64,000 nucleotides of DNA from the NCBI GenBank assembly GCA_963799485.1, contig CAWCXJ010000008.1, forward strand, positions 160,001 through 224,000, given 5' to 3'. The position numbers and the translations under genes were made by a program. This document shows positions 1,477 to 34,701 of this stretch, one piece after another; the first letter of the stretch is position 1, and every line of letters starts with the position of its first letter. This DNA comes from an uncultured Trueperaceae bacterium. Lineage in GTDB: Bacteria; Deinococcota; Deinococci; Deinococcales; Trueperaceae. The notes beneath the pieces are model-generated. The model saw only the letters and a program-made list of their open reading frames with translations. It made no database searches and had not been told where the DNA came from.

Positions 1477-3939
1477 ATGTTGGATAGTTTGTCAGATCTG
1501 GTGGCAGCGGAGACAGCCAGTGTAGCTATCTCGGATCTAACACTGAAACATCTGTTCGAGGCTGCTTTAGCGGCAGGTCGTACTTACCGTAAACTGGGTG
1601 ACTTCGAAGGAGCAGCTGAACAGTTTTCTGTCGCCCTTGCGTTGGCTAAACAGTTAAAGGATGCTGGAGCCGAGGCCGATACACTAAATCTACAAGCCGG
1701 TCTGTGGAGTACAACCGGAGACACACCACGGGCATTAGCAGCTTTGGAACGTGCGCTCGAACTGGTACAAGATTCCAGATTCGGGGACCGTCAAGCCAAT
1801 ATCTTGAACAATATGGGCACGTTACATACCGTACTAGGCAACTATCCACAAGCTCTAGAATATCTTAAAAGCGCACACGACCTCTTACGAACCGTCGCCC
1901 CACGGTCCCGGAGTTCGGCGAGCAATCTGACTAATCTGGGCAGCCTCTACCAGGAATTGGGTGACTCTTCCGAAGCAAAAAATTTTTTTACCCAGGCTGT
2001 CGAGGTTGCCCAAACTGCGGGTGAACCTTTGATGGCTGCAGCTGCCCTCAACAACCTCGCTTACACCCATGCTGATGCCGGGGAGTGGCTGTTAGCGAAA
2101 GGCTACTTTCAAAAGGCGCTGACGATCAGCCAAGATGTGGGGGCTAAAGAGTACGAAATTGATAATCTCGACGGCTTAGGACGGGTCTACGCCGCTTTGA
2201 AAGATGTCGACCACGCCAGAAGAATCCATGAGGCTGTTTTAGGTAAAGCTCGAGAGATTGGCTACCTAGAAGGTGAGGGTGACGCACTACTAAACTTAGG
2301 ACGAAACTATTTAGCTCAATGTCAACCCGTACAGGCGCTTGAGTTCTTGCGTCAGGGTCTCAAGATTGCCGAGCAGCTCGAACGCCCGGTTTCGGTGTAC
2401 GAAGCGCATGAGCTGCTCGCTCAGGCATATGAGGAAACTGGCGATTTTGCCAGGGCGCTTCACCATCAGCGGGCTTATCAAGAGACGGAAAAGGCGGTTT
2501 ACAACGAGGAGAACGAGCGCCAAGCCCGTAGACTGACCTTGCAGTTTGACCTCGAGCGGGCGCGCCGTGAAGCCGAAGATTACCGCCTCCGTAACGAAAT
2601 CACCCAACAAGCTCGGGAAGATGCCGAAGCGACGGTTCGTGAGCGCACCCGCGAACTTGAAGAGGCGCAGCTCGAGATCGTCACGCGTTTAGCGGTTGCC
2701 GCTGAGTACCGTGACGACAACACAGGCGAGCATACGAGGCGCGTCGGACGTAACGCTGCTGCGATTGCCCACGCCTTGGGTTGGCCCGAAGACAAGGTGC
2801 AGCTCTTGTTTACGGCTGCCAGGCTTCACGATGTCGGCAAAATCGCGATAAGCGACCTTATCCTGCACAAACCGGGGAAGCTGGAGCCCGAAGAAATTAC
2901 CCTGATGAAGACCCACGCCGTGATCGGCGCACGCATCTTGTCCGGGGGTCACTCGCCGCTTTTACAGATGGCTGAAGAAATCGCCCTTGCCCATCATGAA
3001 CGCTGGGACGGTAAGGGCTACCCTTTAGGACTTTCGGGCGACGCGATTCCGCTATCTGCTCGTATCGTGGCTGTAGCTGACGTCCTCGACGCCCTGACGC
3101 ACGAGCGTCCTTACAAAAGGCCGTGGCCGGTAGCGGAGGCGTTAGCTGAGATAGGTCGGCAGAGCGGACATCACTTCGACCCACGCGTCGTAAAGGCTTG
3201 CTTTATGACCTTCGGCCCGGGTCAGGCGCTTTCTCCTACCGATGATCCGGCAGACTGGCCGGATACAGCTCGGCGTCTAGCCAGAGTTCCGTCGTTCCTG
3301 TCTTTACCGTATCAAGCAGAGTTGGAAGCTGCAAACTCGGTAGAGCGGCTTAAAAAGCTTTTAGCAAAAGCGGTTCAAGAACTCGAGACAAGCCGGCGTG
3401 AAGCGAAAGCGGCGTCTTTGCAGATGCATGAAATGGCGTTCACTGACCCTTTGACCGGACTCTATAATCGCCGGGCTTTTGAAGCAGACCTCGAGACCGA
3501 GGCGGCGCGTGTGCTGCATTACGGCGACCGTCTAAGTGTTCTCAACCTCGACCTAGATATGCTCAAACAGGTCAACGACGCTGAAGGCCACAAGCGCGGC
3601 GACGCGCTGTTATGCAGCTTCGCCAAGGCTGCTAGTGAACATTTGCGGGAGTGGGGCAGGCTTTACCGGGTCGGCGGTGATGAGTTTGCAGCTATCCTTG
3701 TACACACGGGAATACCACATTTTGAGGTAGTTCGTACCCGACTAGATCAGGCGGTAGCTGAGCTTAGAAAAACAGACTTTCCACAAGCGAGTGTCAGCAT
3801 GGGTATCGTCGCATTTCCCGAAGAGGTCTCTACAACTGGAGACCTGATACGTCTCGGTGACCAACGTATGTACAACGACAAGCTAAAAAGGCGCGAGTTA
3901 CGGTCTCGGTTGCACCCTTCTAAGCAAGGTGCTGAGTAG
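1477..3939 (+). CDS. TPR-repeat / HD-GYP phosphodiesterase / GGDEF diguanylate cyclase fusion
   Basis: TPR repeats ([16 protein letters not shown]), LHDVGK and [11 protein letters not shown], then [11 protein letters not shown] and YRVGGDEF. Confidence 0.93.
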
Positions 3940-5846: not shown

Positions 5847-6115
5847 GGGGTTAGTATATGACTCGCTAGTAGATAGCTTTCAATCATGTGTACTCCCAGA
5901 CTGTCGGTTTAACGTGCCTTCAGAAATGTTTACTAATGTGACTAACATGAGTAAAAAGAGAAAAAAGATTAAGAACCAATTAAAAACATTAGTTGCATAA
6001 TAGGATTAAAATCCTTTATACTTACAGAGCATTAAAATTCCCTTCGATTAAGGAGTACAATTCGCAATTCGGCATACACCTTTAGTTATAAGGCTATAGG
6101 CGAGGGGAGTTAAAT

Positions 6116-6232
6116 GTCAAGAAACACGCTGGGTCAAGAAACACGCTGGGTCAAGAAACACGCTGGGTCAAGAAACACGCTGGGTCAAGAAACACGCTGG
6201 GTCAAGAAACACGCTGGGTCAAGAAACACGCT
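6116..6232 (+). repeat. 17-bp tandem repeat GTCAAGAAACACGCTGG, 6 perfect copies plus a 15-bp partial copy
   Basis: Units start at 6116, 6133, 6150, 6167, 6184, 6201 and 6218; no spacers. Confidence 0.98.
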
Positions 6233-6250
6233 AAGACTGTTCTAATCGGA

Positions 6251-7285
6251 ATGCTCTTAGCTATAACGTTGGCTGCTTGCGGAAAAGTAGCGAGTCCAAA
6301 CGAAGCTGTCTCTGCCTCTCCAACAACCAGTGCCGGTTTTATCCCGCAGTACATGCCGGATGCAGAGTTTGCTGTCGCCTCAGAGCTTTCTTCCCAGAGC
6401 TTAGATGCAGCAGAAACACGCATAGACCTCATGGTTGCGCGCAAACACACCTTCAGTAACGGTCAAACCTTTGAATACACTACAATTGGAAATTCGGTTG
6501 TGGACGCCGACGTGATATTCGGTACGACAGAGGAACTCGAAGGAGCTTTCCAGAAGTACGAAGCTTATCTTGCAGAGGGGAACCCCCCGTTGACGCCGCA
6601 AGGTGCCATGTACGACCCCTACTGTGATGTTAGAGTTGTCTTTTGTTTTGTCACGGCTGGGAAAAAATGGGCAACAAACGGGACAACAAATGTTGTCTAC
6701 TTTGACCCACGAACACTCGACCAGTTCACTACAGCGCAGCGGACTCTTATAAGAGATGCCATGCAGCACATAACAGATAAAACGAACGTCGGGTTTCAAG
6801 CTTCTTACGGTGTGGGCAACAGGATTGAGTTTAAGAAAGCAGATGAAGGATGCCACAGCCGCGCAGGGATGGTTGGCGGAGCCCAAACATTAAATCTACA
6901 AGTTCCGAAAGCAAGTAATAATTATGGTTCCTGTTTTGTTAATTCTGACCGCTCGGCAGGTTTCGGCACAATTGCCCACGAACTCGGGCACGCTATGGGA
7001 CTGATGCACGAACACTCACGTACCGACCGTGACAGCAAGATTGATGTTTTGGTCAACAACCTTACGCCAAAAGGCTTAGACATCATGTCTCAGAAGTACG
7101 CACACCAGACGAGAACAGTCTACGACTACGCCTCAATTATGCACTATGAGAGAATTACATCTGACCCATCGTTTGTCAAATGGTCGGGGCTTACCATTTT
7201 TACTACGAAAGGCTACGGTGGGCGTGTCGGTAACAACAGGCTAACTTCTCTTGATGTTCAGGCCATCAATCAACGTTACCCATAA
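6251..7285 (+). CDS. Astacin-family (M12A) zinc metallopeptidase lipoprotein; natural start probably ATG 6114, currently out of frame
   Basis: HELGHAMGLMHEHSRTDRD zinc motif, YDYASIMHY Met-turn, lipobox LAAC; n-region KKHAK lies upstream of 6251 in the same frame. Confidence 0.9.
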   Translation: MLLAITLAACGKVASPNEAVSASPTTSAGFIPQYMPDAEFAVASELSSQSLDAAETRIDLMVARKHTFSNGQTFEYTTIGNSVVDADVIFGTTEELEGAFQKYEAYLAEGNPPLTPQGAMYDPYCDVRVVFCFVTAGKKWATNGTTNVVYFDPRTLDQFTTAQRTLIRDAMQHITDKTNVGFQASYGVGNRIEFKKADEGCHSRAGMVGGAQTLNLQVPKASNNYGSCFVNSDRSAGFGTIAHELGHAMGLMHEHSRTDRDSKIDVLVNNLTPKGLDIMSQKYAHQTRTVYDYASIMHYERITSDPSFVKWSGLTIFTTKGYGGRVGNNRLTSLDVQAINQRYP

Positions 7286-7295
7286 GGGAGCTTTT

Positions 7296-7866
7296 ATGTA
7301 CAGAACTCTGCTTTTACTCATCCTGGTTACGGTAAGCATCTCCGGTTGCAGAAATGCCTCAAGGCGCGACGAAGTAGATTTCCCAAGGACTCACCCTGCA
7401 GCAATTTATGAAAAACGCAGCTTCCAAAGACTATCTTTACGCGCAAGCTGTTATAGCTTCCGGTCTGATTGACGACTTGGGAGAAAAAGACTTTCCTCTT
7501 ACGCTGATAGATGTTTACGAAGAAAAGGCACTCAAGACCTACATTGCGGAACAGGGGTTGACCGAAGAGGAATTTCTAGCCCACCCGAAGCTGCGCGGCT
7601 TCCTGGAGCAGCACCTCATTCCAGGCTATGTTGACCTCATCAAGATTCGTAGTACGCCAAATGGTCGTTTTGTCTACACCTCGGCTGCCGGTTCCGAAAT
7701 CGTCTTTACCACCGGAGAAGACCTTACACAAACGCCTGATAATCTCAACGTTGCCGAAGCTAATGGTGTTCCCTTCAATCCATACTGTTCTGGAGAAGGT
7801 GAAGAGGGTGGACAGCTTTGCTACGCTGTCGCGCCCATTGTTCAGGATTTCGACTGGTCACGATAG
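7296..7866 (+). pseudogene. Fasciclin (FAS1)-like lipoprotein split by a frameshift near 7378-7390
   Basis: RBS AAGGGAG and MYRTLLLLILVTVSISGC in one frame; GLTLQQFMKN...LRGFLEQHLIPG (FAS1-like) in the next frame (ORF 7408-7866). Confidence 0.65.
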
Positions 7867-7889
7867 TTTTCTAACGTGAGTTTTAGGGA

Positions 7890-7925
7890 AGGCTCGAGGC
7901 TCCGGCGGTCTCGAGCCTCTTTTTT
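7890..7925 (+). terminator. Rho-independent terminator with CTCGAG in both arms
   Basis: AGGCTCGAG...CTCGAGCCT followed by a T-run, between convergent genes. Confidence 0.75.
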
Positions 7926-31725: not shown

Positions 31726-31759
31726 GAGTAAACCAAGGTGATGAGTAAACTAAGGTGAT
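31726..31759 (+). repeat. 17-bp tandem duplication spanning the -10 and start codon of the nitrilase gene
   Basis: GAGTAAACCAAGGTGAT / GAGTAAACTAAGGTGAT (1 mismatch). Confidence 0.8.
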
Positions 31760-32744
31760 GAACGTTCACCTCATCGCGGTTCAGGCCCAGCTGCGGCTAT
31801 CCAACTACCGGAGCCCGGAGGCGTTTGCGGCGTGGGTCTTAGAGCTTTCAGAGCGGGCAGTCGCCGGTCTGGACGACGCGCCCAAACTGCTGGCGTTTCC
31901 CGAAACGGTCGGGTTGCCGCTTTTGTTGACGCTGGGGCGTTACGCCGACGTGTCGCGCCGTACACAGCTTACAGGCGCGGCGCTGAGCGGTTTACGGCAG
32001 GAGTGGCGGCGCGTGTTGCGGGCCGCTCTCAAACACCGGGCGGTGGGGCCGCAGGCGTTTTTTGTAGCGCGGGCGCTCCCGGCGTACCGGGCGTATGTTG
32101 CGGCGTTTTCCGGCGCGGCGCGGCGTACCGGGGCGACGCTTGTCGCGGGCTCGAGCTTTCTCCCGCATATCGAAAACGAGGCGGCGCGCGGACTGCACGT
32201 CGCCGATGGACGGGTGCAAAACGTGGCGTATACCTTCGGGCCGACGGGCACTTTGCTGGGGCGGAGCGGGAAACGTTACCTGACCGGGGGGCTCGAGTCG
32301 CGTCTCGGCTTGTCCCGCGCCCCGGCTGAGAGCCTGCGCGTCTTGCACACCCCGGCAGGGCGCGTCGGGGTAGCGCTCTGTTTAGACGGGTTTTACAGTT
32401 CGGTGTTGGAGACCTTCGACGGTCTAGGCGCGGACATCGTGGTGCAACCGAGCGCCAACTACGCCCCCTGGACGCGCCGCTGGCCCCCCGACGAAAGCTA
32501 TTCGGAGGGCGAGGCGTGGCTGAGTTTGGGTCTCCGGGCCGGGCTGAGAGGGCGGCAAACGATCCGTTACGGCGTCAATCCGATGCTGGTCGGCGGGATG
32601 TTCGAGCTGCGCGCCGAGGGGAGAACGAGCATCGTCGCCAATTCGCGCTACCTCGAGGCCGAAACAGAAGGCTACAGCGGCGTCGTGGCGCTCGCGCGGA
32701 GCTGTGACGCCGAAGAGGTTGTCAGGACGACCGTAGAACTTTAA
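31758..32744 (+). CDS. Nitrilase-related carbon-nitrogen hydrolase
   Basis: Glu-Lys-Cys triad: AFPE, SGKRYL, ALCLDGF. Confidence 0.85.
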   Translation: MNVHLIAVQAQLRLSNYRSPEAFAAWVLELSERAVAGLDDAPKLLAFPETVGLPLLLTLGRYADVSRRTQLTGAALSGLRQEWRRVLRAALKHRAVGPQAFFVARALPAYRAYVAAFSGAARRTGATLVAGSSFLPHIENEAARGLHVADGRVQNVAYTFGPTGTLLGRSGKRYLTGGLESRLGLSRAPAESLRVLHTPAGRVGVALCLDGFYSSVLETFDGLGADIVVQPSANYAPWTRRWPPDESYSEGEAWLSLGLRAGLRGRQTIRYGVNPMLVGGMFELRAEGRTSIVANSRYLEAETEGYSGVVALARSCDAEEVVRTTVEL

Positions 32745-32820: not shown

Positions 32821-34701
32821 ATGGTGTTGTCGGCCCTTTATGACGTGGAAAAGTTTTACGGCGAGCAGGTGGTGCTGGACGGCGTCACCTTGGAGCTGCG
32901 CGCTTCATCACGAACGGCCTTGATTGGGCGTAACGGGGCGGGAAAGTCAACAATTTTACGGCTTCTCTTAAACCAAGATGCGCCCGACGGCGGCAGCGTC
33001 TTTCGGCGCGACGGGGTGAGCGTCGCGATGTTGGCGCAAGACCCCATCATCCCCCCCGGGATAAGCATTTTGGAGCTTTCCGAAACGGCGTTTGCCGAGC
33101 TGGACGAACTCGAACTTGGGTTGCAGGGGCTCGAGCACGAAGGCTTGGACGACCCCGAGGTTTACGCCCGCTGGGAAGTTCTGCACGAAACCTTCGAGCG
33201 GCGCGGCGGCTTTGAACGGCGTTCACGTAGGGATTCGGTACTCTTTGCCCTCGGGTTTCGCGGGCGCGAACACGAGGTCGCCGGCCACCTCTCCGGCGGC
33301 GAAAAAACGCGCTTGGGGCTTGCGCGCCTGTTGATGGCGCAACCCGACGTACTGCTGATGGACGAACCGACGAACCACCTCGACATGGCGATGCGCGACT
33401 GGTTGGGCGGTTATTTGTCGCGCTATCCGGGCGGCGTGCTGCTCGTCTCGCACGACCGGGCGTTTCTGGATGAGACCTGCGACGCGACCGCCGAAATCTC
33501 ACAGGGGGCGCTCCGGACGATGAATACGACCCCGACGCGTTACCGCGAAGCGCGGGCCGAGCAGGAGCGGCTCGAGGCCGCCACCCGCGCCAATCAGCAA
33601 AAAGAGCACGAGCGCCTCGCCGCCGCCGCCACCCAGATGAAACGCTGGGCCGGTCAGAGCGAAAAACTCCACCGCCGCGCCAAGGCGATGGAGCGCCGCA
33701 CCGAACGTTACGCCGCCACGATGCTCCCCGACGCCGAGGCTGCCGAGCGCCGGACCCGCTTTACCTTTCCCTGCGACGACTCCGGCGAAATTGTCTTGCA
33801 GGCGCAGCATTTGAGTAAAAATTACGGCGGTGAACAGCTTTTTAACGACGTGGACTTCGTTTTACGGCAAGGCGAACGCGCCGCGCTCGTCGGGCCGAAC
33901 GGCGCAGGAAAATCGAGCTTTTTACGGGTCGTTTTGGGCGAAGCGCCGAGCGACGACCCGCGCGCGTTGTTGCGCTTCGGCTCCCGTGTCCGCGTCGGCT
34001 ACTACGACCAGGAACTGCGCGGCGTCGAACCGGACGCAACCCTGTTTGAAGAGTTGGTCCGGCTCGTCGGTGACGGGGCGGCGCACAATCTCTTGGGGCG
34101 TTTTTTGTTTCCCTATGACGCGCAGTTCAAGCTTGTGCGTAACCTTTCCGGCGGCGAACGGGCGCGCTTGGCGCTCCTTAAGCTCACCCTTGGCGAGTAC
34201 AACTTTCTGGTGCTGGACGAACCGACAAACCACTTGGACGTCGAGATGATCGAAGCGCTCGAGGCTGCCTTAGCCGCCTACACCGGCACGCTCTTGATCG
34301 TCTCGCACGACCGGCGCTTTATCGCCCAAACGACCGACCTCGTGTGGGAGCTGGATAGTGGGCATTTTACGGCGTATGAAGGCGACTGGAGCTTTTACGA
34401 GCGTAAACGCCGTGAGCGGAGTTCTGAAGCGCCCGAAGCCGAGTCGGTACAGGTCGAAACTCCCAGAGGCGAACCCAGAGGCCCCTCGAGATGGCAACTC
34501 GGGCGCGACCAGGAGGCGTTAGAGGCGCGGATTGCCGAACTCGAGGCTGAACTCGGCGCGTTGACGCAAAAGCTTACGGCTCCGCAAACGCTCAGCGCCG
34601 ACGCGCTTGTGGAGGTGAGTGAGCGGCACGGACAGCTCGAGGCCGAACTCCTAGACGCGATGGCCCGCTGGGAAGAGACGGCACAGAGGCTCGAGGTCTG
34701 A
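32821..34701 (+). CDS. ABC-F family ATPase (Uup-like, C-terminal coiled coil)
   Basis: Two ABC domains (GRNGAGKST, GPNGAGKSS, LSGGE, DEPTNHLD twice), no TM segments. Confidence 0.94.
   Translation: MVLSALYDVEKFYGEQVVLDGVTLELRASSRTALIGRNGAGKSTILRLLLNQDAPDGGSVFRRDGVSVAMLAQDPIIPPGISILELSETAFAELDELELGLQGLEHEGLDDPEVYARWEVLHETFERRGGFERRSRRDSVLFALGFRGREHEVAGHLSGGEKTRLGLARLLMAQPDVLLMDEPTNHLDMAMRDWLGGYLSRYPGGVLLVSHDRAFLDETCDATAEISQGALRTMNTTPTRYREARAEQERLEAATRANQQKEHERLAAAATQMKRWAGQSEKLHRRAKAMERRTERYAATMLPDAEAAERRTRFTFPCDDSGEIVLQAQHLSKNYGGEQLFNDVDFVLRQGERAALVGPNGAGKSSFLRVVLGEAPSDDPRALLRFGSRVRVGYYDQELRGVEPDATLFEELVRLVGDGAAHNLLGRFLFPYDAQFKLVRNLSGGERARLALLKLTLGEYNFLVLDEPTNHLDVEMIEALEAALAAYTGTLLIVSHDRRFIAQTTDLVWELDSGHFTAYEGDWSFYERKRRERSSEAPEAESVQVETPRGEPRGPSRWQLGRDQEALEARIAELEAELGALTQKLTAPQTLSADALVEVSERHGQLEAELLDAMARWEETAQRLEV

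Follow-up and report, generated by a model that had tools for sequence, protein, structure and literature searches.

Can a minisatellite between a start codon and a lipoprotein signal switch a surface protease on and off, or does it record the loss of a gene? The question arises at an astacin-type gene in a 64,000-nt stretch of DNA from an uncultured Trueperaceae bacterium (hereafter the window; its genome is G000), for which an earlier note had proposed a slipped-strand contingency locus.

Array, start codon and reading frames

The layout described in the earlier note was borne out by the sequence and by TRF. The ribosome-binding site and ATG 6114 run straight into six identical full 17-mers (6116–6217), followed by the first 15 nt of a seventh up to 6232 (period 17, 6.9 copies, 100% matches, score 234). 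The unit is free of stop codons in every forward frame, and translation from ATG 6114 through six units gave the 43-residue peptide that had been read. The protease frame lies two bases on from that of ATG 6114. As had also been claimed, it carries the lipoprotein signal and, although open from 6092, contains no ATG, GTG or TTG upstream of 6251. When copy numbers from 0 to 11 were computed, the full protein was obtained with 2, 5, 8 and 11 units and not with the other eight of the twelve. The array-length arithmetic makes six units the OFF state and five or eight the ON state, in agreement with the claim that 2, 5 or 8 units would fuse ATG 6114 to the protease and that the loss of one unit would turn it on. 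The Cys falls at residue 50 with five units and at residue 33 with two, behind a longer, basic n-region. Such an in-frame start with a basic n-region is present at 2, 5 and 8 units and absent from the six-unit allele. A hydrophobic stretch and the lipobox Cys were detected by pattern scan, and the Cys is conserved in full-length relatives. Three promoter-like sites were found, compared with 1.7 ± 1.4 in shuffles.

Several sequence traits of a contingency locus are thus combined here: a perfect non-triplet repeat in the 5' coding region, a full-length ORF toggled by a change in unit number, and an intact gene body. The unit length departs from them. Described contingency loci typically have units of 1–7 nt and, as the earlier note had remarked, 17 nt is long beside such tracts. 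In the block-shuffled 375-kb contig no array passed the filter, against 13 in the real contig, so the array is not a chance product. The first 15 nt of the unit occur seven times in the 3.66-Mb genome, all within the array; a mobile or dispersed element was rejected on the basis of this single locus.

The position of the true start was read from P0002, the closest protein among 11 hits (58% identity; sister on a quick tree), the N-terminus of which is MSKGTFGQKEVKTVL / MSKGTFGQKEVKTVLVVTLLAVMLAAC. Its residues 1–8 match the ATG frame of the window (MSRNTLGQ) and the following ones match the protease frame (KHAKTVL). This homology, with P0002 compared as a protein, indicates that ATG 6114 is the real start and that the frame changes inside the array. 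A base missing at the edge of the array was disfavoured by the same homology and by the assembly error rate. From the ATG to the K of KTVL there are 33 nt in P0002, and a one-unit allele here would have 34.

Table 1. Features of the astacin locus in the window (positions of the window) and frameshift sites elsewhere in G000 (contig and position).
Feature	Position	Strand	Basis or remark
Promoter-like site TTAAAA-18-TACAAT, weak	6032..6061	+	chance level
Ribosome-binding site GAGGGGAG	6102..6109	+	read in sequence
Start codon ATG, homologous to P0002 start	6114..6116	+	N-terminus MSRNTLGQ, MSKGTFGQ in P0002
Perfect minisatellite, 6 x 17 nt + 15 nt	6116..6232	+	repeat analysis; in frame at 2, 5, 8, 11 units
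Remainder of lipoprotein signal KTVLIGMLLAITLAAC	6233..6280	+	equivalent stretch in P0002: KTVLVVTLLAVMLAAC
TAA closing the 43-aa OFF-state peptide	6243..6245	+	ATG 6114 frame with six units
Lipobox (Cys codon 6278–6280)	6269–6280	+	pattern scan
Intact astacin-family (M12A) pro-protease, predicted	6281..7285	+	Pfam, PDB, motifs
Pro-region of astacin	about 6422–6625	+	motif positions
Zinc motif HELGHAMGLMH, then EHSRTDRD	6977–7009	+	HEXXHXXGXXH and EXXRXDRD
SIMHY Met-turn with zinc-binding Tyr	7133–7147	+	motif present
Accessory two-gene cassette (astacin and partner), predicted	5862..7925	+	GC and congener comparison
Partner lipoprotein gene (ATG 7296, signal, Cys 7347)	7296..7866	+	frame reading
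Terminator-like hairpin and T run after partner gene	7890..7918	+	hairpin scan
Single-base frameshift sites in G000	C13 91043, C4 11085, C7 375073, C7 78260		alignment
Further single-base frameshift sites in G000	C4 139525, C7 22050, C7 22165, C12 61020		alignment

The astacin protease

The gene behind the array encodes a predicted zinc-dependent protease of astacin family M12A. The 335-residue pro-protease matched Pfam PF01400 (E = 3.4e-29; 102.3 bits, cut-off 22.5), and its relatives of solved structure in the PDB were astacin/BMP1 (E about 3e-13). The body is free of lesions and retains all family motifs. According to the available text of PMC9848320, the family is defined by HEXXHXXGXXH followed by EXXRXDRD and by SIMHY; it includes crayfish astacin and BMP1 and, in bacteria, flavastacin and myroilysin. 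The window protease shares both motifs, the Met-turn and the pro-region with astacin and BMP1. In contrast to the known astacins described there, it is predicted to be lipid-anchored and lies in a cassette with a fasciclin-like lipoprotein, and its host does not colonise animals, as most of the bacterial carriers covered by that source do. One homologue was assigned to Truepera radiovictrix by its source.

Proposed switch

We propose, with a probability of about 0.5, that the locus is a slipped-strand translational ON/OFF switch caught OFF in the assembly. Ribosomes starting at ATG 6114 would translate the six-unit array and terminate at 6243, having made 43 residues; in alleles of five or eight units, translation would continue into the hydrophobic signal, the lipobox and the intact astacin zymogen. 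The array may have originated as a short, imperfect two-copy repeat in the n-region that was homogenised to a 17-mer and then expanded by a genome-wide slippage process. If its length changes often enough, a fraction of the cells would carry the membrane-anchored protease. If the protease is conditionally costly, genes of its clade could repeatedly gain repeats of new units behind the start codon; such a cost would account for the recurrence of 5' repeats as well as for the frequent complete losses described below.

Related genes in the Deinococcota

A pro-region profile (A3) gave 17 matches in 11 of the 364 genomes of the phylum, corresponding to 15 clade genes when a duplicate in G000:C5 was counted once and one weak, decayed match was left out. 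Five of the 15 are out of frame between the RBS-ATG and the lipobox Cys. Their repeats (unit length in nt x copies) are 17 x 6.9 in the window, 11 x 2.3 in G001, 4 x 6 in G021:C14, which shows the textbook pattern, 7 x 3 in G246, where a second shift is present, and 7 x 1.7 in both copies of the G000:C5 gene. Of the other ten, those in G130 and G227 are interrupted by stop codons, and eight are intact. On a quick tree inspected by eye, the shifted genes were placed on separate branches among the intact ones, and their repeat units are unrelated. In G246, a change beyond unit number would be needed for a proper signal, and the shift in G001 could equally be due to one extra A in an A5 run. Other losses in the clade are a broken copy in G017 and an astacin remnant in G054.

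Under a strict criterion, 600 nt of gene starts contained four repeats and 14,842 nt of gene bodies a single one (p = 2e-4 when the window gene is left out); four of the five lie within the first 40 nt, which make up 4% of the sequence. Repeats at the start were present in 3 of 14 clade genes, compared with 6 of 1139 ordinary genes (p = 1e-4). These figures overstate the enrichment, since three of the six profile genes were picked after their repeats had been seen, the genomes are kin, and ordinary genes are selected for frame. Among the clade genes found afresh by profile A3, one of eight had a repeat (p = 0.05); the 64 astacin loci whose 5' end is visible together held three frameshifting repeats (p = 0.01). 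The comparison of orthologues that the earlier note had suggested was divided in its outcome: different repeats occupy the same spot in 5 of the 15 genes, and out of sample the count is one in eight. In the available text of PMC3711429, contingency genes are recognised when at least five homologues are frameshifted and have a tandem repeat where the shift occurs. Here five of 15 are shifted, four of them with repeats that satisfy the strict rule and one requiring the second change, in a clade that was partly defined afterwards.

Outside the clade, 50 distant astacin loci comprised two with a 5' frameshift, two decayed ones and four without a placeable lipobox; the others were in frame. Both shifted loci encode distant astacin lipoproteins. 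In L149 (G005:C8, about 628100) a C7 run directly follows the RBS-ATG, and in L007 (G027:C35) the shift lies in the hydrophobic stretch, after an imperfect 9–10-nt repeat. A metagenome scan with alignment A1 returned at least 70 distant loci (24–61% identity, E of 1e-17 or weaker).

The G000:C5 gene has a close relative, P0004, that is in frame and has an n-region reading MRVRCKVQGAKWLVALL. At the protein level, by back-translation, this n-region corresponds to the 7-mer of C5 with two more units and has the predicted length. None of 40 shuffles matched as well, a result also given by one of about 23–24 other N-termini. P0004 looks like an ON state reached by expansion and, set beside the G000:C5 gene at a paralogous locus, gives the sole indirect hint of copy-number variation. 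A scan of the genome collection for the DNA of P0004 itself returned three distant loci and no match to it. The C5 gene lies in a 5.5-kb segment present twice in tandem (G000:C5 223363–234041) with about 20 differences between the copies, containing ABC permeases, partner, astacin, a hisG-like gene and an IS. The astacin gene is out of frame in both copies, and in one of them the conserved Glu after the third zinc histidine is changed to Lys. Although the copies show about 20 differences over 5 kb, they share the shift, so that a random read error is not its cause.

Among protein sequences filtered by pro-region, 19 of 35 rows were called without a full signal and 8 of 35 from just before the lipobox, where the rows include cluster mates, pieces from contig edges and at least one piece of a gene that is intact. 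P0048, the sister of the G246 gene, and P0095 with three cluster mates, sisters of the G021:C14 gene, were called from just before the lipobox and have whole bodies. As support for a pattern at family level, these clipped signal calls are only suggestive. We put forward, tentatively and with less confidence than the switch at the window locus itself, that the clade may be a convergent contingency family in which each free-living Deinococcota lineage independently recruits a new repeat of 4 to 17 nt, supplied by the duplication-prone mutation of the phylum and placed directly after the start codon, as a reversible switch.

Possible repeat-driven decay of an acquired cassette

A serious competing explanation, which we hold to be the less probable one, is that a repeat inactivated a dispensable acquired cassette and the array then grew neutrally, giving a young pseudo-operon. 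The frequent tandem duplication of 10–20 nt in this lineage would have disabled the gene at its 5' end, where changes are tolerated. Reversion would be possible in principle but switching would not be maintained, and 5' lesions would be over-represented because clean nulls cost least. This explanation draws on the abundance of tandem arrays in the lineage. G000 contains 169 arrays with units of 10–30 nt (46 per Mb), 28 of them with three or more copies; the units peak at 12–18 nt and the arrays are mostly intergenic or frame-keeping. Samples of 0.4 Mb contained 15 arrays in G001 (37.5 per Mb) and 9 in G002 (22.5 per Mb). One perfect 14-mer with 6.9 copies lies between two same-strand genes (G000:C9 195736–195831). 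A duplication-prone process thus spans the lineage and makes such arrays without the need for selection, and neither the size nor the perfection of the window array requires selection.

Some of these arrays deserve mention in their own right. The 14-mer array is directly upstream of a secreted-looking protein, the expression of which it could affect. In-frame 12- and 15-mer arrays occur at gene N-termini (G000:C6 112121–112172, 75449–75527 and 353564–353609), one of them within a signal-like stretch. Smaller repeats in the window are located at 748–816 (24 x 2.9), 31726–31761 (17 x 2.1) and 33328–33372 (24 x 1.9).

The window array stands alone in G000 in that no other long non-triplet repeat downstream of an RBS-ATG puts a gene out of frame. 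Short repeats within the first 40 nt were present in 10 of the 950 genes that have an in-frame RBS-ATG, and six of these are non-triplet. Any non-triplet repeat was present at 6 of 388 out-of-frame RBS-ATG sites; the other five have 2–2.6 copies and are not convincingly gene starts. Among 101 lipobox ORFs, 85 start in frame, and the signal regions of these 85 lack any repeat of at least 20 nt.

The genomic setting is likewise consistent with decay. The cassette genes have a GC content of 0.48–0.49, compared with 0.62–0.66 in the flanking genes and 0.59 in the genome, and the cassette is missing at the homologous site in all four informative congeners (G004 was left out because its contig is too short). 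In G003 and G002 the flanks adjoin with almost nothing between them; G005 has other genes at the site, and G001 an ORF that we take to be transposase-like. On account of the low GC content and this absence, the two genes are interpreted as a low-GC insertion, i.e. an accessory cassette. The site as such is a hot spot of insertion, without cargo in G003 and G002 and with other cargo in G001 and G005. Elsewhere in the window (1477–3939), Pfam matches describe a TPR, HD-GYP-like and GGDEF fusion protein, a hybrid cyclic-di-GMP enzyme.

The partner gene is itself frameshifted by one extra base near 7377–7390, either a real lesion or an assembly error. The earlier note, which had described the anatomy of the locus correctly, had missed both this frameshift and the low-GC two-gene insertion. 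The partner scored 0.90 for FAS1 from language-model features, and none of six partner proteins matched a Pfam family at cut-off; a fasciclin-like protein is a candidate assignment and a lead. Members of the partner family were present in 14 of the 128 genomes of the bacterial family, often alone or in tandem and, in most of the 14, without an intact astacin. Further points in favour of decay are that all three astacin genes of G000 are OFF, one with the change next to the active site, and that 2 of the 15 clade genes carry nonsense lesions.

Three observations do not fit decay well. Neutral duplications would be expected along the whole gene, yet four of the five strict repeats are confined to the first 40 nt; P0004 has the appearance of an allele that regained its frame by expansion; and the G246 gene and P0048, compared as a protein, differ by about 0.2 changes per site, and yet both lack an upstream start and have whole bodies. 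The available text of PMC3315296 reports that N-terminal repeats are better tolerated, that in some pathogens they are enriched beyond this, and that an N-terminal OFF is a clean null. The N-terminal excess found here is equally ambiguous between tolerance and enrichment.

The slipped-strand contingency locus of the earlier note is partly supported: its anatomy and its unit arithmetic are right, and it gains from the homologous start codon and the unrelated repeats in relatives; it is weakened by the similar intergenic arrays and the signs of decay in the cassette. In favour of the switch are the true start with the shift inside the array, the lesion-free body, the recurrence in 5 of 15 genes and P0004 in frame. 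Against an adaptive switch are the arrays throughout the genome, the broken partner, the stop codons in G130 and G227, and the one in eight out of sample. A working switch and repeat-driven decay differ only in whether ON revertants arise and persist.

Possible re-initiation or assembly error

Translation could also restart at ATG 6251, five bases after the TAA, with a stub signal and poor export or lipidation, so that the repeat would tune the localisation or amount of the protease. A stop and restart within 10 nt is a signature of translational coupling in the part of PMC3711429 available, and Deinococcus is reported to use unusual initiation (PMC4007540, PMC2830850). Gene callers begin the window protein and seven other clade proteins just before the lipobox (the 8 of 35 rows above). 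We nevertheless consider re-initiation improbable, as ATG 6251 leaves nine residues and no basic n-region ahead of the Cys, and it is preceded by neither an RBS at a usable distance nor a promoter-like site. The restart codon and its distance to the Cys also vary among relatives, as would be the case for a gene caller's first codon.

About as improbable, in our estimation, is an assembly artefact, in which the true allele would be fixed in frame with five or eight units, or with six and one additional base; since 6 x 17 is divisible by three, putting back a single lost base would likewise bring the protease into frame. Conserved genes of G000 contained eight single-base frameshifts in about 361 kb aligned (six insertions, two deletions; Table 1). 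This count is based on alignment to the G001 and G002 samples, which gave 13 rows; four were set aside as a gene boundary, an rRNA shadow frame, an IS and a 7-nt deletion, and one duplicate was merged. Among the shifted genes are what we take, from their sequences, to be TrpRS, HemC and ribonucleotide reductase. These shifts are probably assembly errors, so frameshifts in G000 need to be read with care, and the +1 of the partner suits this error class. Such an error would, however, hit the 40-nt target with a probability below 0.001 (about 0.013 for the 570-nt partner), and P0002 puts the shift inside an array of seven identical copies. The layout recurs in other assemblies, including one of 330 contigs and the cleaner one of G001, with one clear shift in 259 kb. 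Even with five units, the array would be one slip from OFF. Two read runs with pieces of the organism gave six contigs identical to the window, all outside 5940–7633. Among the genomes and proteins searched, no same-species allele or second strain was found, the astacin and the partner being singleton clusters.

Programmed ribosomal frameshifting or transcriptional slippage was rejected, given the unrelated units, the lack of a conserved slippery site among the five shifted genes, and a shift of phase 1 in three genes and of phase 2 in two.

Comparison with known switches and significance

Classic translational switches include Neisseria opa, whose signal peptide region carries CTCTT repeats, and the CCAA tract of H. 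influenzae hgp. The available text of PMC3711429 adds the Haemophilus influenzae mod gene (AGTC repeats) and the Mycoplasma fermentans p78 lipoprotein (poly-A) as slipped-strand 5' switches. The window locus resembles these four in its perfect non-triplet repeat between the start and the export signal and in having one state in three ON. It differs in its 17-nt unit, its free-living Truepera-type host and its astacin target, and in being known from sequence alone. Its relatives also have unrelated units (4, 7, 7, 11 and 17 nt) instead of one inherited tract.

Longer repeats have precedents. In pneumococcal cap3A, tandem duplications switch the ORF OFF and their loss reverts it (Waite et al. 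2001, as summarised in the review PMC11163986). The likeness to the window lies in duplications longer than a microsatellite inside an ORF, with an OFF state that would likewise revert by loss of a copy. In cap3A, as described there, the duplications occur at varying places and OFF is the duplicated state, whereas the window has a multi-copy array at a fixed 5' position that would cycle through the frames. Promoter tandem repeats of M. tuberculosis vary in copy number in isogenic populations at 1e-2 to 1e-3 per chromosome, according to the available text of PMC12817950. Long-unit arrays can therefore be mutable at a switch-grade rate, although those repeats act on promoter strength and not on the reading frame.

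The main texts of the open-access literature searched mentioned neither this locus nor repeat switches in such astacin proteases. To our knowledge, repeat-driven phase variation has been studied almost only in host-associated bacteria and with units of 1–7 nt. If the decay explanation holds, the locus would be a case of repeat-driven gene loss. Frameshifting repeats would explain why the signal peptides of many clade proteins are clipped in annotations. If the switch is real, the array, together with a gene family that repeatedly gains different repeats at one position, would show how contingency loci emerge de novo from background mutation, and a minisatellite-scale translational switch with a 17-nt unit would exist outside pathogens. 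The locus would then be a clean system for asking why environmental bacteria switch a surface protease.
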